A DNA stretch of 58,804 nucleotides from a virus (lineage: Duplodnaviria > Caudoviricetes): positions 1-58,804 of IMG/VR virus record IMGVR_UViG_3300033150_000453; one strand, given 5' to 3'. The notes under the pieces were generated by a model. The model made no database searches, was not told the DNA's origin, and saw only the letters and a list, made by a program, of their open reading frames with translations. Below, in pieces: positions 11,834 through 35,100 of the stretch. A program made the position numbers and the translations under genes. The first letter of the stretch is position 1. Every line of letters begins with the position of its first letter.

Positions 11834-12051
11834 TGCGAGACATTAGAAAGCTCTGTGTCGGTCCGAACTACAAGGACTCGATGTGTTACGTGGTGGGGCA
11901 GCCAGTTCTTGGCGGCACCCACCATGTGCATTTAATTAAATACGTAGACGGCAACTTCCTCATCTTCATTGAGCAGGAGGACGTGATTGTGCTTTGGAAA
12001 GAGTTCACGTCTCCCATGCCGATTTCAATAGAGTACAATATCAACTTTTGA
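11833..12051 (+). CDS. Hypothetical protein
   Basis: Coupled ORF (IRKLCVGPNYKDSMCYVVGQ...LWKEF...MPISIEYNINF). Confidence 0.7.
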   Translation: MRDIRKLCVGPNYKDSMCYVVGQPVLGGTHHVHLIKYVDGNFLIFIEQEDVIVLWKEFTSPMPISIEYNINF

Positions 12052-12599
12052 GAGCAGTAGAGCAATTCATTGTACGGGGAGATAGATACGCAAATACCAA
12101 GGGGGACCTCATCGTCAGCGCGAACGAGGAGGACCACCGCTTTTCGAACCGGGAGGGCGAGGTAGTTGCGTTACCCTTGGGCTACGACGGCCCTATCTCT
12201 GTTGGCGACACCCTACTTGTTCACCACAACGTGTTCAAGTACTATAACGACATGAAGGGTCGCCGGCAAAGCGGCAGGAGCTTTCTCAGGGACGACCTCT
12301 TCCTCGTCGACTTCGACCAGTTCTATATGTGGCGTTCGGACGGGGACTGGCGCCCCCACGACAGGTTTTGTTTTGTCAAACCCATACCTCCTGTAGAGTC
12401 AACAATATTTAAGCCGTTGACAGAGGAGCCGTTGATGGGTATAATGAGTTACCCAAATGATTATCTTATGGCGCAAGGAATCAAGTCTGGTGACACGGTA
12501 ACCTTTAGACCCGAAAGCGAGTACGAGTTCATTGTTGACGGGGAGAAGTTGTACCGAATGTTCGACCACCAAATCACATGCAAGATTCAAGGAGGCTGA
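12048..12599 (+). CDS. Divergent GroES-like protein with two modules
   Basis: GEVVALP....ISVGDTLLVHH and IKSGDTVTF..SEYEFIVDGEKLYRMFDHQI; TTG start at 12048 inferred from overlap. Confidence 0.6.
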   Translation: MRAVEQFIVRGDRYANTKGDLIVSANEEDHRFSNREGEVVALPLGYDGPISVGDTLLVHHNVFKYYNDMKGRRQSGRSFLRDDLFLVDFDQFYMWRSDGDWRPHDRFCFVKPIPPVESTIFKPLTEEPLMGIMSYPNDYLMAQGIKSGDTVTFRPESEYEFIVDGEKLYRMFDHQITCKIQGG

Positions 12600-12859
12600 A
12601 GGAACGCATCATTGCTGCCGGCCGCGTGGCCGTGGAGCAACTCATCAAGGTTGCTCAGGAGGACATCCTGAAGCCGGGTGAGGATGATGACCTTGCGGCA
12701 GACAGGCTGAAAAATGCGGCGGCTACGAAGAAGCTGGCCATCATGGACGCCTTTGAAATCTTGAATCGCATCGACTCCGAAGAAGAGGAGTTGGAGCTGG
12801 CGTCGAGCTCTACCAAGACAGAAACTAAGGTGGGGTTTGCAGAGCGACGTTCCAGATAA
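12578..12859 (+). CDS. Helical protein, possible terminase small subunit
   Basis: Position directly upstream of terL; function inferred from position only. Confidence 0.45.
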   Translation: MQDSRRLKERIIAAGRVAVEQLIKVAQEDILKPGEDDDLAADRLKNAAATKKLAIMDAFEILNRIDSEEEELELASSSTKTETKVGFAERRSR

Positions 12860-15056
12860 GCTATACACCGTTCGGTACGACTACGTATCGAAGGGAGTGG
12901 TATCCAACAAGAACCGCGCGAAGACGTGGATGTATGGATACAACGAGAAGTACGACATGGTCGTTATCTCCAAGACCGGACAGATTGGAGACATCATAGA
13001 GGTCAACGGCCTCGTTATCGCGCTCCCCTTGGCGCCGAAAGACTTGCCCAAGGGCAATAACAAGTGGGTCCGCGAAGAGCTCCCCAAGGCCCTTTCTCGC
13101 GTCCAGAGCATCTTCCAATGGAATGATATGCCCAAGGCGTTCAAGGCGCAGTGGGTAGACTATATCGAGAGCGAATTCGACCGCCGGGAGGAGGGCCATT
13201 GGTTCATTAACAACGGCATCTCGACGTACATCACGGGCGCCCACTACATGTACTTGCAGTGGACGAGCATCGACGTGGGCTACCCCGACTACCGCGAGGC
13301 CAATCGGATATTCTTTATCTTCTGGGAAGCGTGCAAGGCGGACCCCCGCAGCTTCGGTATGGTATACCTGAAGATTCGTCGTTCGGGATTTTCGTTCATG
13401 GGGTCTTCGGAGTGCGTCAACACAGGAACTCTAGCCAAGGACTCACGAGTTGGGATACTCTCAAAGACAGGTAACGACGCGAAAAAGATGTTCACCGACA
13501 AGGTGGTACCCATCGCGAACCGACTTCCATTCTTCTTCAAACCGATACAGGACGGCATGGATAAGCCGAAAACGGAACTGGCGTTTCGTATACCTGCTTC
13601 GAAGATTACAAAGAAGAACATGTACGATGTGGAGGACGAAGAGATTTTCGGACTGGACACGACCATCGACTGGAAGAACACCGACGACAACTCCTACGAC
13701 GGAGAGAAGCTCCTCCTCCTCGTCCACGACGAGAGCGGAAAGTGGATTAAGCCCAACAACATCCTCAACAACTGGCGAGTTACCAAGACGTGTTTGCGCT
13801 TGGGCAGCAAGATTATCGGCAAGTGCCTTATGGGCTCCACTTCGAACGCGCTGGCGAAGGGAGGCTCAAATTTCAAGAAGCTATACGAGGATTCCGACCC
13901 GCGTGTACGCAACGCCAACGGACAAACCAAGAGCGGCATGTACTCCCTCTTCATCCCGATGGAGTACAATATGGAAGGCTTCATCGACGAGTTCGGCCAC
14001 CCGGTGTTCCACGCGCCGGAGAAGCCGGTGATGGGTGTCGACGGCGAGAAGATTCGTGGCGGGGCGGTAGACTACTGGGACGCGGAGGTCGAAAGCATGA
14101 AGAGCGACCCCGACGCCCTTAACGAGTTCTACCGACAGTTTCCGCGTACTGAGTCGCACGCTTTCCGGGACGAAAGCAAGCAGAGCCTATTTAATCTGAC
14201 CAAGATTTACCAGCAGATTGATTACGCCGACAGCCTTGTCAAAGAGCACTACCTCACGCGCGGTTCGTTTCAGTGGCAGAACGGAATCAAGGACAGCAAA
14301 GTCATCTTCAGTCCCGACAAGCGGGGCAGATTTAATGTGTCTTGGACGCCACCCCAGCACATGCAAAATCGTTGGATAGACAAACGTGGCGTTAAGTATC
14401 CCGGCAATGAACATCTCGGTTCCTTTGGATGTGACTCCTACGACATTAGTGGCACTGTTGGCGGTGGTGGTAGTAATGGCGCTCTGCACGGAATGACCAA
14501 GTTCCACATGGACGACGCGCCTACCAACGAGTTCTTCTTGGAGTATGTCGCCCGCCCGCAGACGGCGGAGATTTTCTTCGAGGAGGTGCTCATGGCTTGC
14601 ATCTTCTATGGTATGCCCATCTTGATTGAGAACAACAAGCCCCGCCTGTTGTACCACTTCAAGAACCGAGGGTATCGCGGGTTCTGTATGAACCGTCCGG
14701 ACAAGCACTTCAATAAGTTGAGTAAGACCGAGCGCGAGCTGGGCGGCATCCCCAACAGTTCTGAAGACGTCAAGCAGGCCCACGCCGCCGCCGTGGAGAG
14801 CTATATCGAAAAGCACGTTGGCGTGCTAGAGGACGGAGAAATTGGGATGATGCCGTTCGTCAGAACCCTTGAGGACTGGGCACGATTTGATATTAGCAAC
14901 CGTACTGCATTTGACGCCACCATTAGCAGCGGACTGGCTGTTATGGCCAACCAAAAACACCTCTATCTTCCTGAGCAGAAGAAGAGTTCAATAAGCATTA
15001 CCTTGCCGAGATATAACAATCGTGGTTATAGGAGCGAGCTGAATGAAGGACGTTAA
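12837..15056 (+). CDS. terL: Terminase large subunit
   Basis: LKIRRSGFS Walker A-like, LLLVHDESGKW Walker B, MGST motif, FGCDSYD and ILIENN nuclease motifs. Confidence 0.9.
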   Translation: MQSDVPDKLYTVRYDYVSKGVVSNKNRAKTWMYGYNEKYDMVVISKTGQIGDIIEVNGLVIALPLAPKDLPKGNNKWVREELPKALSRVQSIFQWNDMPKAFKAQWVDYIESEFDRREEGHWFINNGISTYITGAHYMYLQWTSIDVGYPDYREANRIFFIFWEACKADPRSFGMVYLKIRRSGFSFMGSSECVNTGTLAKDSRVGILSKTGNDAKKMFTDKVVPIANRLPFFFKPIQDGMDKPKTELAFRIPASKITKKNMYDVEDEEIFGLDTTIDWKNTDDNSYDGEKLLLLVHDESGKWIKPNNILNNWRVTKTCLRLGSKIIGKCLMGSTSNALAKGGSNFKKLYEDSDPRVRNANGQTKSGMYSLFIPMEYNMEGFIDEFGHPVFHAPEKPVMGVDGEKIRGGAVDYWDAEVESMKSDPDALNEFYRQFPRTESHAFRDESKQSLFNLTKIYQQIDYADSLVKEHYLTRGSFQWQNGIKDSKVIFSPDKRGRFNVSWTPPQHMQNRWIDKRGVKYPGNEHLGSFGCDSYDISGTVGGGGSNGALHGMTKFHMDDAPTNEFFLEYVARPQTAEIFFEEVLMACIFYGMPILIENNKPRLLYHFKNRGYRGFCMNRPDKHFNKLSKTERELGGIPNSSEDVKQAHAAAVESYIEKHVGVLEDGEIGMMPFVRTLEDWARFDISNRTAFDATISSGLAVMANQKHLYLPEQKKSSISITLPRYNNRGYRSELNEGR

Positions 15057-18584: not shown

Positions 18585-20018
18585 ATGGCAGGTTCAGTAC
18601 AAGCCAACCCCGGGTTCGATTTGCAACCCAGCGCAGAGCGCGTTGCTCTCGCAACCAATTACATCACCAACTTCGACTTCCTCAACCAGTATCTCCCCGA
18701 TACTTACGAGAAGGAGTTCGAGCGTTACGGCAACCGGACTGTGTCTGGCTTCCTTCGCATGGTTGGTGCCGAGATGCCCACCAACTCCGACATGATTAAG
18801 TGGGCGGAGCAAGGTCGTCTTCACACTAAGTACACCAACTGCACGTCGGCTGCTGCCGCGACTTCCAACACGGCTACGTGGACGGTGAACGACACCCTCA
18901 ACCCCGGCACTGGCGGCATCGCCATCCGCAAGGGGCAGACGGTGTTCATTACCGACAACACGGCGGCTAGTGGTCTTACCAACAAAGCTGTCGTGACGGA
19001 CGTCGACTATGCTAACGGCACTTTTGACGTCGCCTACTATGAGGGCGGTGGTCAGGCCGTTGCCGCAGCCGTGGTTTGTACCGTGATGATTTACGGTTCA
19101 GAGTTCAAGAAGGGCGACACTGGCATGGAGGACTCTCTCGAGGCCGACGACTTCATCTTCGACAACAAGCCCATCATCCTGAAGGACCGCTACGAAGTTT
19201 CCGGTTCCGACATGGCGCAGATTGGCTGGATTGAGGTGACGACCGAGAACGGCGCTACGGGATACCTGTGGTACCTGAAGTCCGAGCACGAGACCCGTCT
19301 CCGCTTCGACGACTACCTCGAGACCGCTATGATTGAGGCTGTCCCGGCCGCTCCGAACTCCGGTGCCGAGGGTGCCCTGAGTACTGCTACGGCTGCCGTG
19401 GGTACGGTCAACGCTGGTTCCGAGGGTATCTTCTACGCTGTGGAGACTCGCGGAAACCTCTGGTCTGGCGGTATCCCGTCCACCCTTGCTGACTTCGACT
19501 CCGTCATCGGACGTCTGGACAAGCAAGGTGCCATCGAGGAGAACGTCCTCTTCGTGAATCGTGAGATGAGCTTCGATATCGACGACATGCTGGCTGCGCA
19601 GAACAGCTACGGTGCCGGCGGTACGAGCTACGGTCTCTTCGACAACGACGAGCAGATGGCCCTCAACCTTGGCTTCACGGGCTTCCGTCGCGGTTACGAC
19701 TTCTACAAGTCTGACTGGAAGTACCTGAACGACCCGACGATGCGCGGTGGCCTTACCAACGGCGTTGTCAACGGTCTGCTTGTTCCGGCTGGTAGCACCA
19801 CGGTCTATGACCAAGTGCTCGGCAAGAACGCCAAGCGTCCGTTCCTCCACGTCCGTTACCGGGCGAGCGAGACCGAGGACCGTCGGTACAAGACTTGGAT
19901 TACCGGTTCCGCCGGAGGCGCTCGCACGAGCTCTCTGGACGCCATGGAAGTCCACTTCCTGTCCGAGCGTGCTGTTTGCGTCATGGGCGCCAACAACTTC
20001 TTCTTGTTCCAAGACTGA
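18585..20018 (+). CDS. Major capsid protein
   Basis: 477 aa, strongly biased codons, position after scaffold, hairpin downstream. Confidence 0.82.
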   Translation: MAGSVQANPGFDLQPSAERVALATNYITNFDFLNQYLPDTYEKEFERYGNRTVSGFLRMVGAEMPTNSDMIKWAEQGRLHTKYTNCTSAAAATSNTATWTVNDTLNPGTGGIAIRKGQTVFITDNTAASGLTNKAVVTDVDYANGTFDVAYYEGGGQAVAAAVVCTVMIYGSEFKKGDTGMEDSLEADDFIFDNKPIILKDRYEVSGSDMAQIGWIEVTTENGATGYLWYLKSEHETRLRFDDYLETAMIEAVPAAPNSGAEGALSTATAAVGTVNAGSEGIFYAVETRGNLWSGGIPSTLADFDSVIGRLDKQGAIEENVLFVNREMSFDIDDMLAAQNSYGAGGTSYGLFDNDEQMALNLGFTGFRRGYDFYKSDWKYLNDPTMRGGLTNGVVNGLLVPAGSTTVYDQVLGKNAKRPFLHVRYRASETEDRRYKTWITGSAGGARTSSLDAMEVHFLSERAVCVMGANNFFLFQD

Positions 20019-20081: not shown

Positions 20082-20816
20082 ATGAATAAAGACAAGACCT
20101 ACCGCCTCAAGCGTGGGCGAGCCCCCCTCTCCTTTATGATTCCCGGTCGTAGCACCAGCCGAAAGCCTCTCCTGTATTGGGATGAGGAAAAGGGTGAGAA
20201 CCGCGTTCTCCGCTACGCACGGAACCAAAAGAGCCCCTTCGAGGATGAGCAAGATGGTAACGCCATCGTCGAGCCCATCATTTTTGAAGACGGCTTCCTT
20301 CACGTCCCGAAGAATAATCCGGTCCTTCAGAGCTTCCTCGCGCACCACCCGCTGAATGGGGCGCAGTATGAGGAAGTCAACCTCGAGCGCGACGCCGAGG
20401 CCGAGGTGGAGCAGTTGAACCTTGAGGTCGATGCGCTCATCGAGTGCAAGGCTTTGACGCTGGACCAGCTTGAGTCCATGTCTCGCATCATGCTTGGCCT
20501 AGACCCTCGCAAGTACACTACGGCTGAGCTTCGCCGCGATATGCTCGTTGCCGTCCGCCGCGAGCCCGAGCACTTCCTTTCGTTGGTTAATGACCCCGAC
20601 GTGAAGTTGCAGGGTCAGGTGCAGCGGTTCTTCGACGACAACCTCCTTTCCTTCCGTCGCAACAAGACTGAGATTTGGTACAATGGTCCGTCCAACAAAA
20701 AGAAGTTGGTGACGGTACCGCATGGTAAAGACTATCTCGCTGTTGCGATTTCCTATCTACTTAGCGACGAGGGCCTTGAGCACCTCCGTGCCCTCGAGGC
20801 GTTGACTCAGGAGTGA
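20082..20816 (+). CDS. Hypothetical protein of the head module
   Basis: 244-aa ORF with phage-typical codon usage. Confidence 0.75.
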   Translation: MNKDKTYRLKRGRAPLSFMIPGRSTSRKPLLYWDEEKGENRVLRYARNQKSPFEDEQDGNAIVEPIIFEDGFLHVPKNNPVLQSFLAHHPLNGAQYEEVNLERDAEAEVEQLNLEVDALIECKALTLDQLESMSRIMLGLDPRKYTTAELRRDMLVAVRREPEHFLSLVNDPDVKLQGQVQRFFDDNLLSFRRNKTEIWYNGPSNKKKLVTVPHGKDYLAVAISYLLSDEGLEHLRALEALTQE

Positions 20817-20846: not shown

Positions 20847-20878
20847 AAAAGAGCCACCTTCGGGTGGCTTTTTTTTTG
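20847..20878 (+). terminator. Rho-independent terminator
   Basis: AGCCACC-TTCG-GGTGGCT followed by a T run. Confidence 0.88.
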
Positions 20879-20890
20879 GACCTTGGTGGT

Positions 20891-22123
20891 ATGAAGAGAT
20901 GGCTGCTACTCCTTTGGTTCCCAACAGCTTCGTACGCTCAGTGCGACCTTGAGCTCCTCGACTTCGACCCTATCGTCGGTGAGATTACGGTTGCGTTCAA
21001 CAACACCGAGAGCTGCGGGGGACTGGCGGGACCGACTGGGATAGCTGAGATTCAGTTTGGCTTTCAGGCTTTGGACTCCAACTGCAACGCCCTGAATCAG
21101 GGGTGGGACTTCCCGTGGGGTCTGAGCATTCCCGACGACAGCAACCACCCGGGGTGGATTTACTCTGCTACGACTACGGTTCAGTCTACCAACTGGACCA
21201 ATCTGGACGTATGGGCCGACTACAACGTAGACCCCCCGTACTATACGGGCGATACCATCACGTTTCCCCTCGATGACTTCTATCAGGCTGGTAGCACTAG
21301 CCTGTTCTCCAACCTGCTTAACGCCTTTGACTTCTGGTTGGGTCAGGGCTTGGGCATACAGGCCGTCATCTGGCAGATAAGCTATGGGCCTACTATGTAT
21401 GCTGCCGACGGCGGCTGGGCTGAGGTGGGCATCAATGGCGACGGTACCGGCGGTGGGGGTGGCCTCTATGAGGACCAGAACTGGCAAGACAATTGGCTCA
21501 TCACCTGTCCGGACGAGGTGCCTGTGGTCGTCTATGACACGGTGTATATCGAGTTGCCACCCGATACTATCATCGAGTACGTCTATGACACGACTTACAT
21601 AGAGCTTCCGCCCGTGGTGGAGTTCGATACCATCTCTATCACCCTGTACGACACGGTCTTCGTTCAGCTCCCTCCGATTACGATTTACGACACGACGTAT
21701 ATCGAGCTCACGCCTGATACGGTGGTGTTGTGGGATACGGTCACGTGGTATCTGACTGACACGGTCTATCTAACGCTCTTAGACACCATCGTCGTCGAAG
21801 TAGACTGCGAGACGGGTGAGGAGTGCTTGGGTATTATTGAGTGCCCCATTTACGCTCCTAACGCCTTTACGCCAGACGGCGACGGGGTCAACGACGTGTG
21901 GTTTGTGGAGGCTCCTGACGATTGCTGGGATAATGTGAACGTCAAGGTCTACTCCCGGTGGGGCGACTTGGTGTGGGCTTCGAGCTCATTCAACGAGCTG
22001 TGGGACGGTGGCTACGATGTGGCATACGTACGTGACGACGTGTACACGTATCACTTCATAGCTCGGAATATCCACACCAATCAGTGGGTGGAAAGGAGTG
22101 GCCATGTAGTGGTATTGAGATGA
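20891..22123 (+). CDS. Secreted protein with T9SS type B (gliding-motility-associated, CHU_C-like) C-terminal sorting domain
   Basis: Signal peptide MKRWLLLLWFPTASYA-Q; C-terminal PNAFTPDGDGVNDVW...VYSRWGDLVW...WDG...VYTY...GHVVVLR. Confidence 0.88.
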   Translation: MKRWLLLLWFPTASYAQCDLELLDFDPIVGEITVAFNNTESCGGLAGPTGIAEIQFGFQALDSNCNALNQGWDFPWGLSIPDDSNHPGWIYSATTTVQSTNWTNLDVWADYNVDPPYYTGDTITFPLDDFYQAGSTSLFSNLLNAFDFWLGQGLGIQAVIWQISYGPTMYAADGGWAEVGINGDGTGGGGGLYEDQNWQDNWLITCPDEVPVVVYDTVYIELPPDTIIEYVYDTTYIELPPVVEFDTISITLYDTVFVQLPPITIYDTTYIELTPDTVVLWDTVTWYLTDTVYLTLLDTIVVEVDCETGEECLGIIECPIYAPNAFTPDGDGVNDVWFVEAPDDCWDNVNVKVYSRWGDLVWASSSFNELWDGGYDVAYVRDDVYTYHFIARNIHTNQWVERSGHVVVLR

Positions 22124-22132
22124 TTATCTTTA
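22124..22132 (+). promoter_or_regulatory. TTATCTTTA motif before the tail genes
   Basis: Same core as 7227, 8267 and 9779. Confidence 0.5.
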
Positions 22133-22136
22133 GAGA

Positions 22137-22844
22137 ATGATTAACTCGGTCCGTAATACCGTATTGTCGATTCTGAATAAGAACAACTACGGATACATCT
22201 CCCCCTCGGACTTCAACCTGTTTGCGAAGCAGGCGCAGCTCGAAATCTTCGACGGGTACTTCAAGGAGCTCAACCAAGTCATCAACGCCGAAAACGCGCG
22301 CATGTCGGGCACGGAGTACGCCGACTTGAACAAGGGCACGCGAGAATCCATTGACATCTTTTCTCGAACGGCAACGCTTACTCAAACTGGCGCTGGCGTA
22401 AACACCTATTTCACGCCAAGTCAGGCGACTACAACGGACGACTACTACCTCATCAACAAGGTTTTAGCTAGTGGCGTAGAGGCAGAGCGGGTGACTCACG
22501 GAAAGATTACGCTCCTCAACAGTAGCCTGTTGACAGCGCCGAGCGTGCAGTATCCGGCATACACACTTGAAGCAGACCGCATCACCCTTTTCCCAAACAC
22601 TATCACTGGGGCAACCGATGTGACGTGTCAGTACATTCGTTACCCACGCGACCCGCAGTGGACTTACAGTGTGCTGTCGGGCGGAGAGCCGGTCTTCAAC
22701 CAGAGTCTTTCGGACTACCAAGACTTTGAGGTGCCTATTGATGATGAAACCGACCTCGTGTACCGCATCTTGCAGATGGCCGGCTTGAGCATCCGCGAGG
22801 GAGACGTGTACCAATACGCTAACGCCGAGGAAGCCCAAAACTGA
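22137..22844 (+). CDS. Tail ring/adaptor-like structural protein
   Basis: LNKNNYGYISPSDFNLFAKQAQLEIF...YIRYPRDPQW; podovirus-type synteny. Confidence 0.7.
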   Translation: MINSVRNTVLSILNKNNYGYISPSDFNLFAKQAQLEIFDGYFKELNQVINAENARMSGTEYADLNKGTRESIDIFSRTATLTQTGAGVNTYFTPSQATTTDDYYLINKVLASGVEAERVTHGKITLLNSSLLTAPSVQYPAYTLEADRITLFPNTITGATDVTCQYIRYPRDPQWTYSVLSGGEPVFNQSLSDYQDFEVPIDDETDLVYRILQMAGLSIREGDVYQYANAEEAQN

Positions 22845-23782
22845 TGCCATACCTAGCCAGCGACTACGTCTATTACGAGAACGGCGGTACCGCGCCTGAA
22901 GATGCCAACTGGGGCAGCTATCAGTACGTTACCCTACAAGACATCGTAACCAACTTCCAGCTCATGTACATGGGCAACCACTCCTTGGTCAACAACGAGG
23001 AGCGGTACAAGGTCTTGTTCCACGCCAAGCGTGCTATCCAAGAGCTCAACTACGACGCGTTCAAGGAGGTCAAGGTCCTCGAGCTCAACGTCTGCGACCA
23101 GCTCCGTTTCGTGCTACCTCCCGACTACGTCAACTGGGTTCGCATCAGCCTGTACAAGGACGGTGTCCTGCGCCCGCTGACGGAGAACATCCAGACCAAC
23201 TTTAGCGGTGCGTACCTGCAAGACAACGAGTGCCGCATCCTCTTCGACGCGGCCGGCAATATCCTGCGCCCTCAGAACTCGACCATCGACTTCGACCGCA
23301 TTACGGGAACCAAGAAGAGCATCTACCTCAACATCTACCTCAATGAGAGTAATAGGTTCGACGGGCAGCTCGGATACGAGTGCGATGGGGATTGGTACTT
23401 CGACTACAACATCGGGGCCCGGTACGGGCTGAACACGGAGACAGCTAATTCGAACCCGACGTTTAGTATCGACCGCAAGGGCGGCGTCATCAACTTCAGC
23501 AGTGGCATCGCCGACGAGCTGGTCATCCTCGAGTACGTCAGCGACGGCATGGAGGCCGGCGACAATTCGGCGATTACGGTCAACAAGCTTTTCGAAGAGT
23601 ACGTCTATGCGTACATCAACTACTCTATTCTGGACGCCAAGCTGGGCGTACAGGAGTACATCGTGAACCGCGCTCGGAAGAAGAAGAACGCCTTGTTGCG
23701 TAACGCCAAGATTCGCATCAGCAACATCCACCCGGGACGGTTGCTTATGAACCTACGCGGTCGCGGCAAGTGGATTAAGTAA
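22844..23782 (+). CDS. Tail ring-like structural protein
   Basis: KRAIQELNYD...LPPDYVNWVRIS...LEYVSDG; synteny. Confidence 0.68.
   Translation: MPYLASDYVYYENGGTAPEDANWGSYQYVTLQDIVTNFQLMYMGNHSLVNNEERYKVLFHAKRAIQELNYDAFKEVKVLELNVCDQLRFVLPPDYVNWVRISLYKDGVLRPLTENIQTNFSGAYLQDNECRILFDAAGNILRPQNSTIDFDRITGTKKSIYLNIYLNESNRFDGQLGYECDGDWYFDYNIGARYGLNTETANSNPTFSIDRKGGVINFSSGIADELVILEYVSDGMEAGDNSAITVNKLFEEYVYAYINYSILDAKLGVQEYIVNRARKKKNALLRNAKIRISNIHPGRLLMNLRGRGKWIK
23320..23343 (+). repeat. 12-bp perfect tandem duplication (CATCTACCTCAA x2)
   Basis: Gives IYLN-IYLN in frame. Confidence 0.85.
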
Positions 23783-26700
23783 TGGCAAATCTGGTAAGGA
23801 ACTTCATCAAGGGCCGGATGAACAAGAGCGTTGACGAGCGCCTTGTTCCGAACGGAGAGTACATCGACGCTCAGAACGTCCGCATGGGGTCTACCGAAGA
23901 CTCCGAGATTGGTGCCGTCGAGAACACCAAGGGCAACACTGAGCTCACTAGGCTGGTGTATCCGGATACTGGAGATGCGCTAAGTGCGCAGGCAACATGT
24001 ATCGGGTCGTATGCCGACGGAGCCAACGAAACCATCTATTGGTTCGTTCACGACCCCGCCTTTACGGCCGTGGGGGCCACAGGGAAGTTGGACCTGATTG
24101 TGTCATACAACGCTCGTACCGACAATTTGCGGTACCACGTAGTAAGTATCGACGACCCCTCAGACCCCACCAATACGCTCACGACCCTCAACTTCGACCC
24201 GCAGCACTTGGTCACCGGCGTTGATTTGGTTGACGACCTACTGTTCTTCACCGACGACTACAATCCGCCTCGCAGAATCAACATCAACACGGCGTACCCA
24301 CAGCCCACAGCTCCGACTCATGTCGATGGGGGTGTTCTGGGTGACGACATCCTCGTCATCAAGGCTCCGCCGATAGAAGCGCCCGTAGTAACTGCCGTAG
24401 ACGTAGACTCCCGTGAGGACTTTATGGAAGACCGGCTGCTTTGCTTTGGCTATCGTTGGGAATACGCTAACAACGAATACTCGGCGACATCACAGTTTAG
24501 TGCTCCTGTTTTTGAAAGCAACCCATTCTCCTTCAGTCAAGAAGATTACCTGAATGTGGGAATGGAGAACTCCATTCAGGCATGCAATGTCACTGTGCGT
24601 ACGGGGAGCTCTTTGGTTAAGGGCATCGACATCTTGTTCAAGGAGATGGACGACTCCATCATCCGCGTTATCGAGAAAGTGGACAAAGCGGACTCGGCTT
24701 TGACCGACAACTCGGACTACACCATTCAATTCAGCAAGCGCAAGATTTTCACCCTTCTGCCGGAGAGCGAGATTTTGAGACTGTATGACAATGTCCCCCG
24801 CCTATCTAAGGCTCAGACATTGATGGGCAACCGCATTGTATATGGCAACTACCTCGAGGGGTACAACCTCATAAACAAAGACAATCTGAGCGTAAAGCTT
24901 GGGTTCAGTGCCGCACTACTGCAAACGCCTCTTGACAACGATGACCCCGCAATAGAAACTCCTGAGGTTTACTCGGCTACCAGCCTGCATAGCAACCGCA
25001 ACTATGAAGTGGGTATCATCTATATGGACGAGTATGGTCGCGCCAGCACTGTGCTTACTGCGCCCAACAACAAGGTGGAGATTGAGTGTGGTCAATCCAT
25101 CTTTCAGAATCAGATTCGGGTTACCATCCCCACACTTATGTCTCCGCCTGAGTGGGCCACTCGATACAAGTTTGCGATTAAGTCTGATGCAGACCTCTAC
25201 GAGACGGTGTACACTAATCAGAACTTTGAGTTCCCGGCCAACTCTGGCGATGTCTATTTCCTGCTTGAGGGGGAGAACGCAGCCAAAGTTGAAAAGGGTG
25301 ACGACCTGATTGTAAAGAGGGACACCTCCGGTGCCGTCACGTCTTGCCTCTCCGCTAATGTGTTGGAGAAAAAGGCGTACGCGGTAGGGGAGTTCGATGA
25401 CTCTACTCCCGGGGCCTTGGTGCCTGCCGTGGCGGGAACCTACATGAAGATGCGCCCCGACTTTTCGTACGGGCCAACCGAAGATGGGTCTGGAAATGTG
25501 CTGAGCAACGTTAGCCCCGGAAAGCAATCCGCCGGAACCAATGGCGGTAACGACCAGCGAACCGAGAATGGTCAGTTTTCTGCTGGCGACTTCCCATACT
25601 TAGTCTATCAAGGCTTCGACTCTGACAGCATCCCCCAAGGGACCAGAATCCGCCTGACAATGACATTCACTCGTCAGGGCCGTGGTGACGCAGCGTGTGA
25701 AACGAGGACACTAGACTTTGACCACACGTGGGTGGCTGATGCAAACTATACCGACATCGTTGATTGGTTCTATGGAGACCCCGATGTTGAAGCTGTTATC
25801 GAGGCCGCATCGGGCGTGTCTGGAGACCCCTCCGCTGCCGCTCCGACAAATCAGGTCGAGCCACAAAACACCAGTAACGCTATCGACTTCGGAGTCTCGG
25901 GAAACTTGCTTGTCAACAAGGTCTTCTTCAACACTCACGCCTCGGTACCTCGATTTGTAGCAATCGGAACCCAGAAGTGTGACGGGTTGCTAGGTTCCGG
26001 AAGTAGTCCTAATCGCCGCTCACGAGTTGATGCGGAATGGACCATCACGAGAGCTACAGACGTGGTTGCGTTCGAAACCGAGCCGACACCATCACTGCCA
26101 AACCTGTGGTATGAGTCTAGCGCCTCGTATCAAATTGACCGGCAAAACGGCCTGCACTATGGCAACGTACAGAACCAAACGCCAACGCAGCCGGCTATCG
26201 TTGACACGGCATTCTTTAATTGTATCAGCTATGGTAATGGGGTTGAGAGCTACAAGATTCGAGACTCCGTAAAAGGAAAGCCTATTACGCTGGGCAACCG
26301 TGCCTTATCAAATAGTGAGGAACGATTCTCTGAAGTCCGCCGCTTTGCAGACCTGACGTACAGTGGCGTATACAACGACGAGACGAACGTAAACAAGCTC
26401 AACGAATTCAACCTTGGTTTGCTCAACTTCAAGCCGCTGGAGGACATCTATGGGCCTGTAGAGAAGCTGTTCGGTAGGCGCACCGATATCCTCACGTTGC
26501 AGGAGGACAAGATTAGCTACGTCTTGGCGGGTAAGAATCTGCTTACCGACGCCACGGGTGATAGCGTGGTTACCTCAGTACCTGAGGTGTTGGGTACGCA
26601 GGTAGCCCGTGTGGAGGACTATGGCATCAGCAACAACCCCGAGAGCTTCGCTCAGTGGGGCCCACACAAGTTCTTCACCGACGCCAAGCGCGGGGCAGTC

Positions 26701-27642
26701 ATCCATTTGTTGGGTGACGGGACCAACGAACAGCTTGAGGTCATTAGTGAACAGGGTATGCGCGGCTGGTTCCGTGATGAGTTTATCGCAAGCTTCAACA
26801 CTCAAAAGCTTGGGGGCTACGACCCGTATATGAACGAGTACGTGCTTGCGAGCAACGGGGTCTTTTTGCCGGGAGAGGAGCCCTGTATCGAGTGTGATAC
26901 GGTACAAACTTTCCTGCTTACCCCGACTCAACAAAGCTTTTGTGTCGACGTGGGAAATACGATTGGCACAGTCGTCGTCAACTATGCCGTTATTTCCGCT
27001 CAGGCCGGGGACGAGGCTACGCTAACCACTACGTATAACGGTACTACCTTTACGACAGGGCCCATAACTAGCGCCTCTCAACCTGCGGCCCCCGCCATCA
27101 ACAAAAACTCGGTTACTGCGGATACCGTTACTGTTAATCTGGACTATACCGGCTCCGAGAAGTTCATTATTCAGGTGCAGGTAAAGTGTCCGCAAGCGCA
27201 AAATATTCTTCTTCGCTTGATTACGGTCAGTAACCGAGACAACGCCCGGCAGTCCATCCATAGTGAGTTCCAGTGGGTTGATGGAAGCTTTGTTTCCCCG
27301 CTTAGCAGTACCGCTGTTACCTTCCCCGCCGGCACTGGCCCCAACATCGCTGATTGGCAAGAGTACTCTGTTGCCGAGGGCAGCAATCTGGGGCCTCCAC
27401 GCGGAAGTACGGTGACGATGTTCTACAATCGCATCTCTCCGGATAACTACATTATTCGAGCGGTAGACCGGTTCAAGTATTTACGCACCAACACCAATTA
27501 CACTCAGGCGGATATTGTGACTTTGTTGAGCGCGGCAAATTCGCTGACCCCCACCGGTGCAGACCCTCAATACGAGGCTTCGTTTACGGTTCCCACCGCC
27601 GGGGCCTACCTCTACTTAATCTGGGATTATTCCAACCCCTAA
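23782..27642 (+). CDS. Tail nozzle/stabilisation protein
   Basis: GRMNKSVDERLVPNGEYIDAQNVR N-terminus, LLFFTDDYNPPRRINI, YGISNNPESFA, FFTDAKRGAVIHL. Confidence 0.75.
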   Translation: MANLVRNFIKGRMNKSVDERLVPNGEYIDAQNVRMGSTEDSEIGAVENTKGNTELTRLVYPDTGDALSAQATCIGSYADGANETIYWFVHDPAFTAVGATGKLDLIVSYNARTDNLRYHVVSIDDPSDPTNTLTTLNFDPQHLVTGVDLVDDLLFFTDDYNPPRRININTAYPQPTAPTHVDGGVLGDDILVIKAPPIEAPVVTAVDVDSREDFMEDRLLCFGYRWEYANNEYSATSQFSAPVFESNPFSFSQEDYLNVGMENSIQACNVTVRTGSSLVKGIDILFKEMDDSIIRVIEKVDKADSALTDNSDYTIQFSKRKIFTLLPESEILRLYDNVPRLSKAQTLMGNRIVYGNYLEGYNLINKDNLSVKLGFSAALLQTPLDNDDPAIETPEVYSATSLHSNRNYEVGIIYMDEYGRASTVLTAPNNKVEIECGQSIFQNQIRVTIPTLMSPPEWATRYKFAIKSDADLYETVYTNQNFEFPANSGDVYFLLEGENAAKVEKGDDLIVKRDTSGAVTSCLSANVLEKKAYAVGEFDDSTPGALVPAVAGTYMKMRPDFSYGPTEDGSGNVLSNVSPGKQSAGTNGGNDQRTENGQFSAGDFPYLVYQGFDSDSIPQGTRIRLTMTFTRQGRGDAACETRTLDFDHTWVADANYTDIVDWFYGDPDVEAVIEAASGVSGDPSAAAPTNQVEPQNTSNAIDFGVSGNLLVNKVFFNTHASVPRFVAIGTQKCDGLLGSGSSPNRRSRVDAEWTITRATDVVAFETEPTPSLPNLWYESSASYQIDRQNGLHYGNVQNQTPTQPAIVDTAFFNCISYGNGVESYKIRDSVKGKPITLGNRALSNSEERFSEVRRFADLTYSGVYNDETNVNKLNEFNLGLLNFKPLEDIYGPVEKLFGRRTDILTLQEDKISYVLAGKNLLTDATGDSVVTSVPEVLGTQVARVEDYGISNNPESFAQWGPHKFFTDAKRGAVIHLLGDGTNEQLEVISEQGMRGWFRDEFIASFNTQKLGGYDPYMNEYVLASNGVFLPGEEPCIECDTVQTFLLTPTQQSFCVDVGNTIGTVVVNYAVISAQAGDEATLTTTYNGTTFTTGPITSASQPAAPAINKNSVTADTVTVNLDYTGSEKFIIQVQVKCPQAQNILLRLITVSNRDNARQSIHSEFQWVDGSFVSPLSSTAVTFPAGTGPNIADWQEYSVAEGSNLGPPRGSTVTMFYNRISPDNYIIRAVDRFKYLRTNTNYTQADIVTLLSAANSLTPTGADPQYEASFTVPTAGAYLYLIWDYSNP

Positions 27643-28415
27643 TGCCTAACTATACCCTGACATATAGCCCGCCTGCTGAGGGGTGGCCGTCCTTCTACTC
27701 CTATGAGCCCGAGTGGATTCAGGGCATGAACCAGTACCTGTACACGTTCAGTGGGGGCAACCTGTGGCGTCACAATACTAACGAGACGCGCAACAACTTC
27801 TATGGGACGCAGTACGACAGTAGTATTCAGAGCGTCTTCAACGACCAGCCCATCGTCAACAAGATTTTCAAGACGCTGGCCATCGAAGGCAATCGGCCTT
27901 GGGCCGCTACGCTTGTCTCGGACCAGCAGGACACGGGCTTCATCAACGCCTCATACTTCGAGAAGAAGGAGGGGGACTTCTTTGCTTTCGTTCGCAACAG
28001 CGGCACCAACCCCGCCAGCCCTGACGAATACGCTCTTCGTTCTCTGAATGGCATTGGCCAAAGCATAAGTGTTTTGGGGAACGTGGTCAGGTTTCCGCCT
28101 ACCGTCAGCATCGGCAGTATCCTGAGCGTGGGAGATAACTTCTACTTCTCTCCGTCACCGTTTACAGCAATTACGTTTGCGGGTAATGTCACAAGTATCG
28201 ACGTCGATTTGCCAAACGGAATCAATACTGTAACCCACGACGGCTCTGGCGCGGCCGGCGGAAACACGGACCTGTGGCTTGGCATTAAGAACCAAGTGGC
28301 GGAGTCTCATGGCATCCTCGGTCACTACGGCGTCTTCACCCTGACCAACACTGATACTACGGCGGTGGAGATGTTCGTGGCCAAGAGTGAGGTCATGCAG
28401 TCGTATCCGGGGTAA
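27642..28415 (+). CDS. Tail protein, probably the separately encoded nozzle C-terminal part
   Basis: TLTYS...GWPSFYSYEPE...NNFYG.QY...NKIFKTL; TAATG coupled. Confidence 0.65.
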   Translation: MPNYTLTYSPPAEGWPSFYSYEPEWIQGMNQYLYTFSGGNLWRHNTNETRNNFYGTQYDSSIQSVFNDQPIVNKIFKTLAIEGNRPWAATLVSDQQDTGFINASYFEKKEGDFFAFVRNSGTNPASPDEYALRSLNGIGQSISVLGNVVRFPPTVSIGSILSVGDNFYFSPSPFTAITFAGNVTSIDVDLPNGINTVTHDGSGAAGGNTDLWLGIKNQVAESHGILGHYGVFTLTNTDTTAVEMFVAKSEVMQSYPG

Positions 28416-30157: not shown

Positions 30158-32124
30158 GCTATTTCAAGTACGCCGAACGGTCATCTGAATCTCGGGTAGA
30201 CTGGAATGAGATTAGCAAGGGCATGGTCGACATGCTCAAGGAGCAGACGCGCCTGCGCAACGAGAAGCTCGACGAGGCGGTAAAGCTCCAAGGCGAAGTC
30301 ACGACCACCCTGTCCGAGGCCCCGATGGGGTCCGACGTGAATGCCAACCAGCGGGTGGCAGAGTTTGCGTCCGACGCGCAGGAGTATTCGCTCATGATGA
30401 ACAAGCTGTGGCGTAGCGGGGAGATGAGCTACCGGGAGTACATGGCTGCGACCAACAACTTCAAGACCAATACCGAGGGATACCTCAGTCAGGCCGAGAA
30501 GTACGCCGCCAACTACGAGGTTCACAAGAAGCGCATGGAGGAGCAGATTGCCTCTGGCGTAGAGGTGTCTGAGCTGGCCCGTGTCGAGGACTTTGGCAAC
30601 TTCAGCAAGTTCACCCCGGTTATCGACGCGCCTACAGGCGCTATTGGATTGGTGGGAGAAGACGGAACCAAGTACGCCAGCATGACTCAGCTTGGCGTAG
30701 CCGTTATGTCTCAGTACGACAGGCTCGATGTCAATGCCGCTACTACTTCGGTCGCAGAGCAGATGGGCACTACGGTTGAGGTGATTAAGAGAGGCGGTGT
30801 TCGGACTCTGGAAAGCGCATTGCAGAACGAAGATTACATCGCCGCCGAGGACAACGCTATCAGCGGCATCCTTGTTGGCGACAACGCCCATACGTCTGTT
30901 TTGGTCGATTACGACATGGGTGCATACAGCACGACCCACGACATCAACGACGCCATCAACGACCCCAATGCCATCCTTATGGTCCCTAGCTCTAGGAATC
31001 CAAACAGGATGATTGGTGCTGTCGAAGACGATGCTGCCTTTGATAGGTACATCGACGAGCAAGCCACCCGAAACGGTCAGCCTCTGACCGATGGGGAGAA
31101 GGCCACTCTCCGACGCCACCGTGACGCGCAGCGCGAGCAGTCTTTCGAAACCGTTCGCAAGCAGCTCCGTGCCCGACTGGACTTCAAGGAGACTCCGATG
31201 GCGGACCGGCAGCCGCCAAAGCCATCCGACAGAGAGAAGGCTGGGCGCTCTTCCGCTGAAACGGGAATAAACAACTTGCAGGCCATCTACACCGCCACGG
31301 ATGACACGAAGGACAAGATGATTGCCGCCATCAACTACTTCGAGGGGCTCAATGAGGGGCTTGACCTTGAGGTGGTGACCCGTGATAATCAGCGTACTCT
31401 TGCCATCAAGCGTGAGGGTGAGGATGAGACGCGATACATTTCCATGGAAACCGATTACCCCACTTTTGTGGAGTCGGTCTCCACCTTCGTTATGCCGAAC
31501 ACGCAGTACTTGAGTTCTGCGCTTGAAGAGAACCCCCTCCCCGAGGGGGCAACGCGTGGAACGGCTTTGGGTGGTGTCGTGATGGAACGTGACGTAGACC
31601 TCGAAAACATCGGTGCCGAAGTGGTGACGTACGATGAAGATGGGGACCAAATTGAGACCACTTTCCGAGGCTTTATGGAGGGCCTTCCCGTGCCGGAAAG
31701 TGATATGTCAAATGAAGACGACAAAACCATTGTTGCGGTAAACGAAATTAACAGCGCCCTTGACCAGTTGAATTTGACCGATAAGATTACGGTCAGTTCC
31801 GTAGTCGAGAACACACTGGAAGACCTGTATGGCAGGACTTTAGGCACGTCGCCCATCGACTACCCCGGCATAAAAATTCAGGCTCCGAACATGCCGAATG
31901 GAATTCTCATTTCGCATGAGCCAAATGACGTCAACACCATTGGACCTATCTTGGAATTGATTGCTACGGGACGCCCTGTAACAATGGAAGAACTATACGC
32001 TCTCATGGGTGATGAGTCTATTGCAATCACCAACAAGCTGATTGAGAAGGGACACTTGAACATCGAGCGGCCCGAGATTCCGAATCCAAACGCGCAAACA
32101 GCTTCAGGAGGTAACGTACGGTAA
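30154..32124 (+). CDS. Putative internal virion (ejection) protein 2
   Basis: 656-aa helical protein between ejection protein 1 and the giant gene. Confidence 0.6.
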   Translation: MSYFKYAERSSESRVDWNEISKGMVDMLKEQTRLRNEKLDEAVKLQGEVTTTLSEAPMGSDVNANQRVAEFASDAQEYSLMMNKLWRSGEMSYREYMAATNNFKTNTEGYLSQAEKYAANYEVHKKRMEEQIASGVEVSELARVEDFGNFSKFTPVIDAPTGAIGLVGEDGTKYASMTQLGVAVMSQYDRLDVNAATTSVAEQMGTTVEVIKRGGVRTLESALQNEDYIAAEDNAISGILVGDNAHTSVLVDYDMGAYSTTHDINDAINDPNAILMVPSSRNPNRMIGAVEDDAAFDRYIDEQATRNGQPLTDGEKATLRRHRDAQREQSFETVRKQLRARLDFKETPMADRQPPKPSDREKAGRSSAETGINNLQAIYTATDDTKDKMIAAINYFEGLNEGLDLEVVTRDNQRTLAIKREGEDETRYISMETDYPTFVESVSTFVMPNTQYLSSALEENPLPEGATRGTALGGVVMERDVDLENIGAEVVTYDEDGDQIETTFRGFMEGLPVPESDMSNEDDKTIVAVNEINSALDQLNLTDKITVSSVVENTLEDLYGRTLGTSPIDYPGIKIQAPNMPNGILISHEPNDVNTIGPILELIATGRPVTMEELYALMGDESIAITNKLIEKGHLNIERPEIPNPNAQTASGGNVR

Positions 32125-35100
32125 TGAACGACGAGCAGGTACTCAAGGATTTTATTGCGACCGCGCAGGCCAATAATTATAACTATGATGTGGTCATGCC
32201 CAAGTTCCCGGAGCTTGAAGGCTACGACCTTCAGGTGCTCAAGGACTACATCGCTACAGCGGAGGCCAACGATTACAACTATGAGGTAATCAACCCCAAG
32301 TTCCCCGAGCTGTTCGACGATAAAAAAAAAGACGATACGGAATCTGTATCGGAGGTTGGTTCATTGGAGCCACCCGTTGTTGAGGAACAAGCTGAACGGG
32401 CCCGGAACCTACGCCCCACTGCGCGGCTGAACGAAGACGGAACGGAGTCTACCGTCTTGATGGCTTCGATGGAAGTCGACGGGAAGAACGTGGCTATCCC
32501 AACCCTATTCCCCAAGGACCCAAACAACGTCACGTCGAGCCCCGAGGACTGGATGGAGCTGGACGCCATGGAGGCATACAACACCGCCCTTGAGCGCGGA
32601 GAAGTCTTTGAGTTCGAAACGCCCGAGGAGGCCAACGCTTTCGCTGAGGGCTCTTGGAAGGTTGACACCCCCGTTGAACAGCCCCGCACGGAGGCGGACA
32701 CTTTCTTCGACATGGCTTTGGAGGCGGTTACGCCCGAGCTAATCGACAGGGGCGACGAGGACAAAGTAGCCTTTGAGCTCAACGACCTTCTCAACCAGTT
32801 CGGTTTCAATGTCGAGACGTCTGGGTTTCTGACCGACGCCTTGAAGGTGACGGCCAAGAACGGCCAGAGCATTGACGTAGACCTTGACCCGTTCCGAACC
32901 AGTACTGAGGTGGCGGAGTCGGACAAGCTCCGTCAGTTCCTTGTCGACAACCGCCGTGAGTCAGAGAACCTGCTCAAGCAGGAAGACGACTATCAGGCCG
33001 CTAAGCTGAAGTTCGCCACCGAGAAGCAGATTGACGAGAACGTAGCCCGCCTGAACCAACAGGCGAACGAGTTCCAGCAGTTCGCTCGCGAGGTCGACGA
33101 TGCGGCTTTGCAGATTCAAAAGAAGCACGCTGGCTTAGAGAAATACACCGAGGAGTATTTGCGTGCCAACCCCGAGGAATACGACGAGTACAAGGCTCAA
33201 TACGATGCTTACGCAGCCGATATGGCTGCTCTCGAAGACTTGGACAAACAGTTGCAGCGGCGTAGCCAAGAGCTGCTGTATGCCGACCAAGAAATCAATC
33301 GCGCCGCAGGAGAGTACATCCAAACCAAGGGTGAGTTCTTTAGGTCAGACATCCCCGGCTTGGCCAAGCGTGCCCTAGCGGAGGGGACGTCTCGTTTGGC
33401 ACGGGGAAGCGTAGACCTTATGGTCGACATCGGACTCCCCGGTCGCGCAATCGACTACAAGCTCGGCACCTTGGACAGGGCCGACGAGGCGGAAGACTTT
33501 GTGTTGGCAGCCAACGAGATTGGCCTAACCAATATCCCGGAGGACGCGGTTGAGAACTTCGACGCTTGGTGGGACTCCCTCCCCGAGGACCTTCAGCAAG
33601 ACATTACTGCTAAGCACCTCGACAACTACGCCAAAGCCCTCAAGTATGGTGGCGAAGATGCGGCGAAGATGTCTGGCGTCGACTTGGAAAAGGGACTCGG
33701 CGGTGACGCATTTGATGGAACGATGTGGGTCTTCGGAGAGTCCGAGGGCGACCTTACTTACGACCTGACTAAAGAGGGTTGGTGGGGTGGCGCGATTCTC
33801 GGTGCCATTGAATCCATTCCCGCCTTTGTTGGCTTCGGGAAAAGCGTCGTGGGCAAAGCCCTTGGTGCGGGTACGCGCTTGGGTAGGCTCTACACACAGA
33901 CTTCCGACCACGTTGACGAGGAGTTCCGCAAAGACCCCGAGTTGCGTAACGTAAGTGAGGCCGATAAGCTCAAGCTGAAAGTCCCGCTGTCGCTGACGGT
34001 AGCTGCACTGGAGAATGTTGGCTTCAGGAACATGGTGCAGTCGAGGAACCTGATGGGCAAGGCGCTTCTTAAGATTGCCGGTAAGCCCACCGAGCGGGCT
34101 ACGGGCCGAACATTTCGAGAGATTATTCAGCGTGAGGTCAATAACGGTGTGGCACGCGCTGGACTCACTCTTACTGCCGGCGCCGCTGCCGAGTTCGAGA
34201 CCGGCTTTGCCCAAGAGGGTGCCGATATCGCTATGAAGAAGCTGTGGAACTTGACGTCAGAAAACCCAGAGTTCGAGACCCCGGACAATGTCCTTATGGC
34301 GATGCTTAACGGCGGTGCTCAGGAGGCTGTGGGTTCTTTCGTCCTCGGCGCCCCCACTGCTGTTGGTGCGTATGCTAACAAGTCTGACTTCTCCAAGCTG
34401 TCAAATGCGGAGCTGGCGGTATTCGAGTGGATGTCCAACCCCGGCAACCGTGGTGCTACCAAGCCTATGATTGCTGCCCACCTAAAGAACCTTGTCAACC
34501 AAGGCAAGCTGACGGGGGCTGAGGCCAAGGCTGCACTCGACGGTTACGAGCGTACCTCACAAGCCATGGATGGCATTCGTGGTGTAGATGGTATGACGCC
34601 CGAGCAAAAGAAGTCGTACCTCGCTATGGAGCTCCGCAAGCAGGAGTTGCAGAGGCAGCTTGACGGTCGTGCCGCACCGTTCAAGAAAGCCATCCAGCAG
34701 GAGATTGACGACCTAGGAATTAGACAACAAGAGATAGCAGATGCCGTTCAAGAGCAAAGCACAGAGAAGGTTCCTACACGCGACGAATCCGGAGCTCGCG
34801 CAGAAGTGGGAAAAGAAGTACAAGACGAGCAAGAACCTCCCGTCGAAACTCAAGAAGCGGAAGAAGAAGTAGAGAGAGACTCTCTTTTTGAGCAGGCAGC
34901 TCGGGCCGTCATTGAGTCTGGTATAGCCGATTCTGGCGCTCTGATGCGGAAGTTTAAAATCGGTAATAACCGGGCCGGTAAAATCATTGACCAGCTTGAG
35001 CAGGCAGGAGTTGTTAGTGAGTTTAGTCCAGAAGGCCGAAAGGTCCTGATGGACGAAGGCGCTTTAGATAATCTGTTGGCTCCAACAGAGGAGGTCGCAC

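Follow-up and report, generated by a model that had tools for sequence, protein, structure and literature searches.

A gene at 20891-22123 (plus strand) of the virus record IMGVR_UViG_3300033150_000453, whose whole 58,804-bp stretch is referred to here as the window, encodes a candidate cargo of the Bacteroidota type IX secretion system (T9SS). This cargo gene is an accessory, moron-like gene; it occupies a fixed site between conserved genes and is present or absent among close relatives of the phage. From the sequence, we slightly favor the view that its product is synthesized late in infection, that the host exports it and that it is displayed on the infected Bacteroidota cell; export with surface display, taken by itself, is favored to the same degree or marginally more. 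The 410-aa protein has four parts, namely a signal peptide, an acidic N-domain, a DT-repeat stalk and a C-terminal type B T9SS sorting domain, which are placed as follows.

20891-22123, plus strand: cargo gene, an open reading frame (ORF) with an ATG start, 410 aa.
20891-20938, plus strand: signal peptide, aa 1-16, with cleavage by signal peptidase I (SPI) predicted between A16 and Q17 from homologue conservation.
20939-21508, plus strand: passenger N-domain, aa 17-206, modelled as a beta-sandwich with one helix; 10 Trp, 4 Cys and no Lys/Arg.
21509-21805, plus strand: stalk, aa 207-305, made of degenerate YDT(T/V)YIELPPDT-type repeats without Lys/Arg.
21806-22120, plus strand: Cys-rich linker (DCxTGxxC...C) and type B T9SS sorting domain, together aa 306-410, with GHVVVLR as the last residues.

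The longest reading of the ORF begins at a GTG (20864..22123, 419 aa); the N-termini of homologues align to the MKRW start at the ATG at 20891.

The initial annotation, which was made from the DNA letters, had assigned the C-terminus to the type B T9SS sorting domains, and profile searches confirmed this assignment. PF13585 (CHU_C) matched aa 322-391 with 53.4 bits against a cut-off of 27, and TIGR04131 (Bac_Flav_CTERM) matched aa 322-394 with 42.6 bits against a cut-off of 35. A six-frame search placed the sorting domain at 21854-22069 with 56.6 bits. The domain forms the extreme C-terminus of the protein; the terminal G-x-V-x-x-x-R pattern could be aligned across 85 sequences, in which G404 and R410 were invariant. 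The conserved blocks of this C-terminal domain (CTD), PNAFTPDGDGVND, YSRWG, WDG, YxY and GHVxxxR, aligned with the last ~70 residues of GhpA, the grappling-hook protein of Aureispira (PDB 9flp; E 1.8e-6). GhpA is otherwise unlike the phage product, being a 5898-aa bacterial protein whose similarity is limited to the sorting domain. The best Foldseek match of the full protein model was PorZ (E 1.7e-3). Type B CTDs are described as necessary and sufficient for T9SS export and targeting, and five motifs (A-E) in the last 100 residues of type B cargos are each reported to be required for secretion (PMC12618676).

The Sec-type signal peptide ending in ASYA-Q, which had also been proposed at first, was assessed by heuristics (n-region, hydrophobic core and cleavage-site residues across aligned homologues) and was borne out. 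The presequence reads MKRWLLLLWFPTASYA and is followed by QCDL. Of the 85 homologues in the alignment, 83 carry 8 or more presequence residues ahead of the Gln; in all 83, positions +1 to +4 are QCDL and position -1 is small (A 55, G 20, S 8). A hydrophobic core was found in every one of them (best 8-residue Kyte-Doolittle window at least 1.85, median 2.60), and 68 have a K/R n-region. A lipoprotein, cleaved ahead of Cys18, was ruled out under the lipobox rule because position -1 would be an invariant Gln. An exposed N-terminal Gln has been described for SPI substrates of Bacteroidetes as the Q-rule (PMC5837995, PMC10653852), and cleavage of the phage product by SPI after Ala16 would follow this rule. 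The gene appears to bear all the sequence hallmarks of a Bacteroidota Sec/SPI substrate with a type B sorting domain, a supported assignment, and T9SS export with surface display is, as far as sequence goes, a well-supported prediction.

We then considered how widely such genes occur. The gene is not private to one phage: it belongs to a phage gene family that is widespread and mobile and appears to have no close bacterial donor. A protein search gave 358 matches at E<=1e-3. All of the 120 matches listed have PF13585; most of them span 96% of the query or more, with identities of 45-92%, and more than 100 homologues are full-length. Several of the listed matches sit on ~60 kb contigs. Automatic annotation labels some of the viral members as "gliding motility-associated C-terminal domain" proteins. 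The IMG/VR database gave 53 viral loci with the cargo gene, in three kinds of context and at least two late-operon slots. Seven of the grouped loci (L002, L003, L005-L009) have it in the same slot between head and tail genes as the window, and in 18, from a lineage that is more remote (terL 48-50% and portal 30-33% identical), it lies upstream of terL with no gene between. At L015, L019 and L039, the cargo start overlaps the upstream stop (ATGA). The other contexts comprise variants of ~550-580 aa with an extra middle domain and members that are 29-36% identical and sit on 64-199 kb contigs. When 185,579 species genomes were scanned by pattern, one locus was obtained, L057, on a 61,607 bp contig of a metagenome-assembled genome labelled Pseudomonadales; this contig may be a mis-binned phage because it is phage-sized. 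The L057 gene (7938-9080, GC 43%) is a full-length member with a signal peptide followed by SQCDV, an N-domain, a DT stalk and a CTD. A single-sequence tblastn search of INPHARED matched just two huge uncultured phages, over the CTD alone. Among long bacterial-type proteins, the CTDs that come nearest are no more than 33-43% identical in a word-based search of weak negative power, and recent capture of a host CTD is therefore not supported.

NG86 dN/dS was 0.12 in the N-domain and 0.17 in the stalk, with 0.23 in the CTD and 0.30 in the signal peptide; these values are rough, dS being saturated at ~1.5. They indicate that all segments are under purifying selection and that the gene is functional. 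Identity to the window protein divides between tag and head as follows.

L002, L003 and L007 (the window's slot): CTD 86-92%, N-domain 61-68%.
L004, L010, L012, L017 and L019 (other contexts): CTD 38-44%, N-domain 82-89%.

Trees were built from 27 non-duplicate genes after 8 duplicate rows had been dropped. In the CTD tree, the 7 genes of the head-tail slot form one clade (100/97), whereas the N-domain tree requires no fewer than 3 changes for them and groups the N-domain of the window with L004 and L012 (100/99). This discordance indicates that the tag stays with the phage backbone, and presumably with the host, and that the head is exchanged between lineages. Such a pattern is expected if the tag must fit a host-specific shuttle. 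The pairing of type B CTDs with shuttles of the PorP/SprF-like kind is described as highly specific (PMC12618676).

The passenger had been described as acidic and without assignment, and it remained so after database searches. Its 190 residues (aa 17-206) hold 24 Asp/Glu and no Lys/Arg, with a pI of 4.05. Profile searches of the N-domain against Pfam, NCBIfam and PHROG gave no match, nor did searches of 31 N-domains against Pfam or a profile search of PDB sequences. An AF2 model of the N-domain alone shows a beta-sandwich and one helix with moderate confidence (pLDDT 72.6, pTM 0.74). Structure prediction, one of the checks proposed at first, thus yielded a model but no fold assignment: Foldseek found nothing in the PDB with E <0.05 (TM about 0.2) and two matches in BFVD, both of them members of the cargo family, and the ESM Atlas gave no usable match to the passenger. 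With the full model, the CTD alone matched well (PorZ), and the N-domain gave weak matches to CopC/LPMO beta-sandwiches (E 5e-3 to 6e-2). The idea of a CopC/LPMO-like N-terminal metal site was dropped because the mature protein would start with Gln, not His, and because these matches were absent from the domain-only search. N-domain matches amounted to just 20 cluster representatives among 1.84 billion; of 10 scanned, 8 have CHU_C at their end and two are short proteins of 243 and 202 aa. The passenger is thus close to virus-specific. Residues invariant down to members with ~30% identity are Q17, C18, D19, C42, W72, H86, G88 and W89, together with a VxWQI strand and GGWA.

The predicted repeat stalk was also confirmed, at the protein level: aa 207-305 hold 10 of the 11 DT dipeptides of the protein and are rich in T/V/D/Y/I/L/P. 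TRF found no tandem repeat in the DNA of this region, indicating that the stalk repeats are degenerate and visible only in the protein. Stalk length varies from 78 to 196 aa (median 108) across the 85 homologues, and AF2 pLDDT is <50 across aa 210-314. Passenger and stalk together (289 aa here) contain 43 Asp/Glu and zero Lys/Arg. In 82 of the 85 homologues the Lys/Arg count over these about 300 residues is likewise zero, with a maximum of 1, whereas neighboring phage proteins contain 7-14% Lys+Arg and the median count in the family CTD is 5. The lack may serve resistance to proteases, an anionic brush or the binding of cations. So strict a lack of Lys/Arg over ~300 residues that are probably exported is a constraint of interest in itself.

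We next describe the site of the gene, which is bounded by two short elements.

20852-20877, plus strand: terminator-type hairpin AGCCACC-TTCG-GGTGGCT (20852-20869) with a T-run to 20877.
22125-22132, plus strand: TATCTTTA box, after the cargo stop codon and 4 nt upstream of the tail-gene ATG.

The hairpin, which the initial annotation had recognized as a strong terminator (20847-20878), has an energy of -20.7 kcal/mol (z -4.8), and 0 of 200 shuffles folded equally well. The pattern scan lists it on the minus strand only, and the plus-strand T-run was read from the sequence; it could be a bidirectional terminator because an A-tract precedes it. Hairpin and T-run end the head block 13 nt ahead of the ATG. 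The hairpin is invariant in 5 relatives, and at L007, L065 and L067 the upstream gene differs, yet the same hairpin still lies directly 5' of the cargo gene. The TATCTTTA box is invariant in 6 relatives and resembles TAnnTTTG, which we take to be the -7 promoter motif of Bacteroidota; the T-run also loosely resembles this -7 box. The promoter-like motif that had been marked at 22124 therefore stands as a conserved element, but a sigma-70 scan found nothing at the box and no sigma-70-like promoter for the cargo gene.

In gene-less relatives, the hairpin and T-run are followed directly by TATCTTT(G/A) and the tail gene. This arrangement was seen in MW202828.1 and Elemovirus, which are the closest complete relatives and lack the cargo gene, as well as in L059, L074, L079, L102 and L119. 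That is, the cargo gene sits exactly between the terminator and the promoter-like element, in agreement with the moron-like seat between head and tail genes that had been proposed. A classical moron has its own promoter and terminator; here the terminator is upstream, not downstream, of the gene. A moron would also stand out from the surrounding genome in base composition, which the cargo gene does not. A gene-less contig from an independent marine metagenome (run X4) joins 20876 to 22116 with 18 other letters between them. The hairpin and the final 8 nt of the cargo gene are retained on this contig, 20877-22115 is missing, and about 306 extra bases directly follow the stop of the upstream gene; it is a single contig of depth 6.6 and resembles a variant in which the cassette was deleted or replaced. 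A contig from a DNA run of another study (X2) spans the 3' junction. In two RNA libraries (X16 and X17), contigs cover the capsid and tail genes of relatives and not the cargo gene, which speaks neither for nor against its expression.

Related phages were surveyed for CTD genes at this locus, as had been suggested with the initial annotation, using the 80 best viral loci coding for the tail-side flank. Both flanks were present in 66 of them, and only 3 of these 66 head-tail junctions hold the cargo gene. The other gaps between the homologues of 20082-20816 and 22137-22844 (L058-L136) cluster at 61-116 nt, ~410-450 nt and ~700-860 nt, with single gaps of 1547 and 1707 nt, and hold one to three small paralogous genes of ~80-110 aa. 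None of the junction genes of relatives has an obvious signal peptide. Because gap sizes and gene fillings differ among the surveyed loci, the head-tail junction is a hypervariable slot. The small junction genes start with M-x-K-[YF] and carry a conserved SW-x-N-like motif near their end; some junctions instead hold larger genes of 240-295 aa.

We propose the following course for the phage cargo. The gene would be transcribed in the window by read-through of the head-operon terminator and elsewhere as part of the terminase operon. The product would leave the cytoplasm by Sec, and SPI would cut after Ala16 and expose Gln17. Eight conserved Cys would form disulfides in the periplasm. The T9SS translocon of the host would then take the CTD and pass it to a host shuttle of the PorP/SprF type, as would be expected from the published behavior of type B cargos, and the shuttle would retain the cargo on the outer membrane, either static or on the gliding track. 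Type B cargos are described as remaining bound to PorP-like proteins at the surface (PMC9143113) and as ending either on the gliding machinery or statically anchored (PMC12618676); SprF is reported to be disulfide-linked to the moving track (PMC12635249). Held off the surface by the DT stalk, the acidic, Trp-rich, Lys/Arg-free N-domain could act as a ligand-binding head, an architecture seen in adhesins and lectins.

Several points weigh against this proposal. A strong terminator lies upstream and there is no recognizable promoter of the gene's own, so that expression in the phage of the window could be very low. Late expression, if it occurs, fits poorly with classical superinfection exclusion. 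The label of a binding head comes from architecture and composition, and no relative of known function was detected. Finally, searches for PorP/SprF (PF11751) found none in the window and 10 other family-bearing viral records, although control genomes never passed the cut-off in these searches, and 10 ORFs scanned directly gave no PorP/SprF match either. No type A CTD gene was found in the window. With no phage-encoded partner, a host shuttle would have to be used. The initial annotation had noted the missing partner gene as a departure from the normal pattern; the lack of a partner in the window stood, but it is not abnormal, because in F. johnsoniae one orphan shuttle serves the 3 type B cargos, out of 12, that are orphan, whereas 9 of 12 adjoin a shuttle gene (PMC12618676).

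The roles offered with the initial annotation (receptor masking, superinfection exclusion, altered adhesion or gliding, jamming of the translocon) are guesses. Our preferred but tentative purpose for surface display is late remodelling of the cell surface so that superinfecting phages, or the phage's own progeny virions, are not adsorbed to infected cells and debris. The Llp protein of phage T5 offers a possible functional analogy with no sequence or structural relation: it is a phage-made envelope lipoprotein that takes the Lol route, blocks adsorption and protects progeny. We also put forward, with more doubt, a more specific form of this idea, in which the gene is a modular cassette of marine Bacteroidota phages with a type B tag tuned to one host shuttle and a swappable head. 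The product would coat the surface as a Lys/Arg-free, protease-proof polyanionic brush, possibly loaded onto the gliding track, and would block virion binding to infected cells and debris. If true, this would be a T9SS-dependent exclusion or exit mechanism without a described counterpart. Phage resistance in Flavobacterium is reported to map to gliding and T9SS genes (bioRxiv 10.1101/2020.10.02.323337, PMC9804748), and the T9SS/gliding surface is therefore a plausible phage target.

Besides surface remodelling, the same T9SS and surface route could serve adhesion. The head would then be an adhesin that tethers the infected cell to particles, algal polysaccharide or neighbors, or rides the gliding track, and the virus factory would be kept among dense hosts. 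In favor of this alternative, a globular head sits at the far end of a stalk whose length varies (78-196 aa), and the head is rich in Trp/Tyr/Asn, which is also a property of carbohydrate-binding modules (CBMs). Type B cargos of F. johnsoniae are described as putative adhesins, the orphan ones being sent to the gliding machinery (PMC12618676). However, no match to a CBM or adhesin family or fold was obtained, and the gain for a lytic phage is speculative. We consider adhesion unlikely.

Export by Sec alone, leaving the protein periplasmic or released, would make the CHU_C-like domain a mere Ig-like module rather than a T9SS signal. The lack of an encoded partner and the 33-43% identity of the nearest CTDs in long bacterial-type proteins are compatible with this, but the domain lies at the extreme end of the protein, G404 and R410 do not vary across the 85 sequences, both curated cut-offs are exceeded and the CTD is under purifying selection. 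In addition, all eight longer relatives of the N-domain that were tested also end in CHU_C. This alternative is quite unlikely.

The product might instead sabotage the T9SS and gliding by occupying the shuttle or the translocon, which would stop secretion and gliding and either remove T9SS-dependent receptors or weaken the outer membrane for lysis. The mapping of Flavobacterium phage resistance to gliding/T9SS genes (bioRxiv 10.1101/2020.10.02.323337, PMC9804748), the co-variation of the tag with the phage backbone and the position of the gene in late operons could all be read in this way. A jammer, however, needs neither a stalk nor a strongly conserved 190-aa passenger (dN/dS 0.12). Across lineages no part is better conserved than the passenger, which points to an action of the passenger itself, and placement behind a terminator suggests a modest dosage. 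We regard sabotage as very unlikely.

It is highly improbable that the product is a virion part, such as a head fibre or decoration, with a spurious signal peptide. The gene does lie within the structural block, and the same slot in relatives holds other small variable genes. Against this, 83 of 83 homologues share the cleavage-site pattern, close relatives with the same virion genes lack the gene, no PHROG structural family matched at E <0.1 and the gene lies upstream of terL in other lineages. None of the three outcomes named at the outset as threats to the prediction (no significant CTD match, a chimeric host insertion, T9SS-independent localization) was encountered. A chimeric host insertion is effectively refuted, whether as an assembly chimera or as captured host DNA: both junctions are conserved in at least five independent viral contigs (five to six) and X2 bridges the 3' junction, which excludes an assembly chimera, while the GC of the cargo gene equals that of its flanks (0.54-0.56 versus 0.51-0.60) and the species genomes scanned gave only the one match, on the 61.6 kb contig.

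We compared the phage cargo with known systems. The closest in layout are SprB and the orphan type B cargos of F. johnsoniae (Fjoh_1123, Fjoh_1720, Fjoh_4934), which likewise have a Sec signal peptide, a passenger and a C-terminal TIGR04131/CHU_C domain; the orphan cargos also lack an adjacent PorP/SprF gene, are expected to obtain their shuttle from elsewhere and to be retained on the surface (PMC12618676). Unlike these cell-encoded cargos, the phage cargo is a gene of a lytic-type phage, ~400 aa long, with an orphan passenger found almost solely in viral contigs, and its shuttle would have to be that of the host.

The initial annotation had presented the gene as its best candidate for a new system, which was too strong, as type A-tagged phage cargos were described in 2020. 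Bellas et al. reported three such genes in one cryoconite phage, "Cryophage", and called this a unique occurrence (PMC7468147). These cargos are similarly phage-encoded, variable and accessory, and their authors inferred a hijack of host secretion. Their type A tags, however, follow the PorV route, are usually cleaved, with the cargo LPS-linked or released, and are carried by recognizable enzymes (endoglucanase, GH39, PA14). The window family has instead a type B tag (PorP/SprF route, non-covalent anchoring) and an orphan passenger, and occurs in many marine phage lineages. Prophage proteins of P. gingivalis that follow the Q-rule are also phage gene products exposing an N-terminal Gln, interpreted as adapted to host secretion and as potential modifiers of the outer membrane (Matrishin et al. 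2023, PMC10367356). They differ in belonging to temperate phages of an oral pathogen, and that paper makes no mention of T9SS, "type IX" or CTD. Our literature searches found no paper on phage-encoded type B CTD cargos. Phage T9SS cargos were thus known before as type A, and the type B tag on a phage cargo appears to be new.

Proteins of the T9SS and of gliding are the dominant ones on the Bacteroidota surface, and a phage cargo in this pathway would mean that viruses reprogramme that surface from inside. The tags, being small and naturally diversified, would help to dissect tag-shuttle specificity, and matching a tag to its shuttle could help to link uncultured marine phages to their hosts. 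Since the family is abundant in marine metagenomes, an influence on adsorption, adhesion or gliding would be felt at an ecological scale.

The window is the complete genome of a podovirus (CheckV completeness 100%), a marine phage of the Bacteroidota type. Terminase, portal and virion proteins flank the cargo gene on both sides, with a block of virion and tail proteins downstream, in the following order.

11994-12599, plus strand: GroES-like gene (phrog_13932, annotated co-chaperonin GroES, 73.5 bits), upstream of the terminase.
12837-15053, plus strand: large terminase.
After the large terminase, plus strand: portal, then a scaffold-like gene.
18585-20015, plus strand: capsid-type virion protein.
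20082-20816, plus strand: conserved gene with no assigned function (phrog_34748), the last conserved gene upstream of the variable slot.
22137-22844, plus strand: virion structural protein (phrog_14543), the first gene of the tail block.

In relatives without an insert, the phrog_34748 homologue directly precedes the tail gene. From 41.9 kb onward, the minus strand encodes a helicase, a primase, an exonuclease, a Sak annealase and ParB. The cultured relatives identified through terminase and capsid protein are podoviruses that infect Flavobacterium, Cellulophaga, Tenacibaculum and Maribacter, and the nearest record is the uncultured 60.8 kb podovirus MW202828.1, with 75% and 69% identity, respectively. 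In the terL-adjacent lineage, the position of the GroES-like gene of the window is taken by a gene of 191-195 aa (L019 4698-5285; L027 5128-5703), likened to it by position alone, and the cargo gene lies between this region and terL.

GC is about 0.50-0.60 across 16-27 kb of the window. The Flavobacteriia that host the cultured relatives are mostly low-GC; because the value seems high for Flavobacteriia phages, the host may possibly be a Bacteroidota lineage of higher GC. Further along the structural arm, a 257-aa protein (27642-28412, plus strand) matched PF25729, the C-terminal domain of the crAss-virus muzzle protein, with 61.8 bits, and a 1286-aa virion protein of phrog_14478 (23782-27642, plus strand) lies directly upstream of it. 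The match suggests a crAss-like tail muzzle in this podovirus of the Flavobacteriia type. The arm ends with a 3218-aa ORF (32124-41780, plus strand), which has partial PHROG matches only, among them an FtsK/SpoIIIE-like stretch at aa 910-977.

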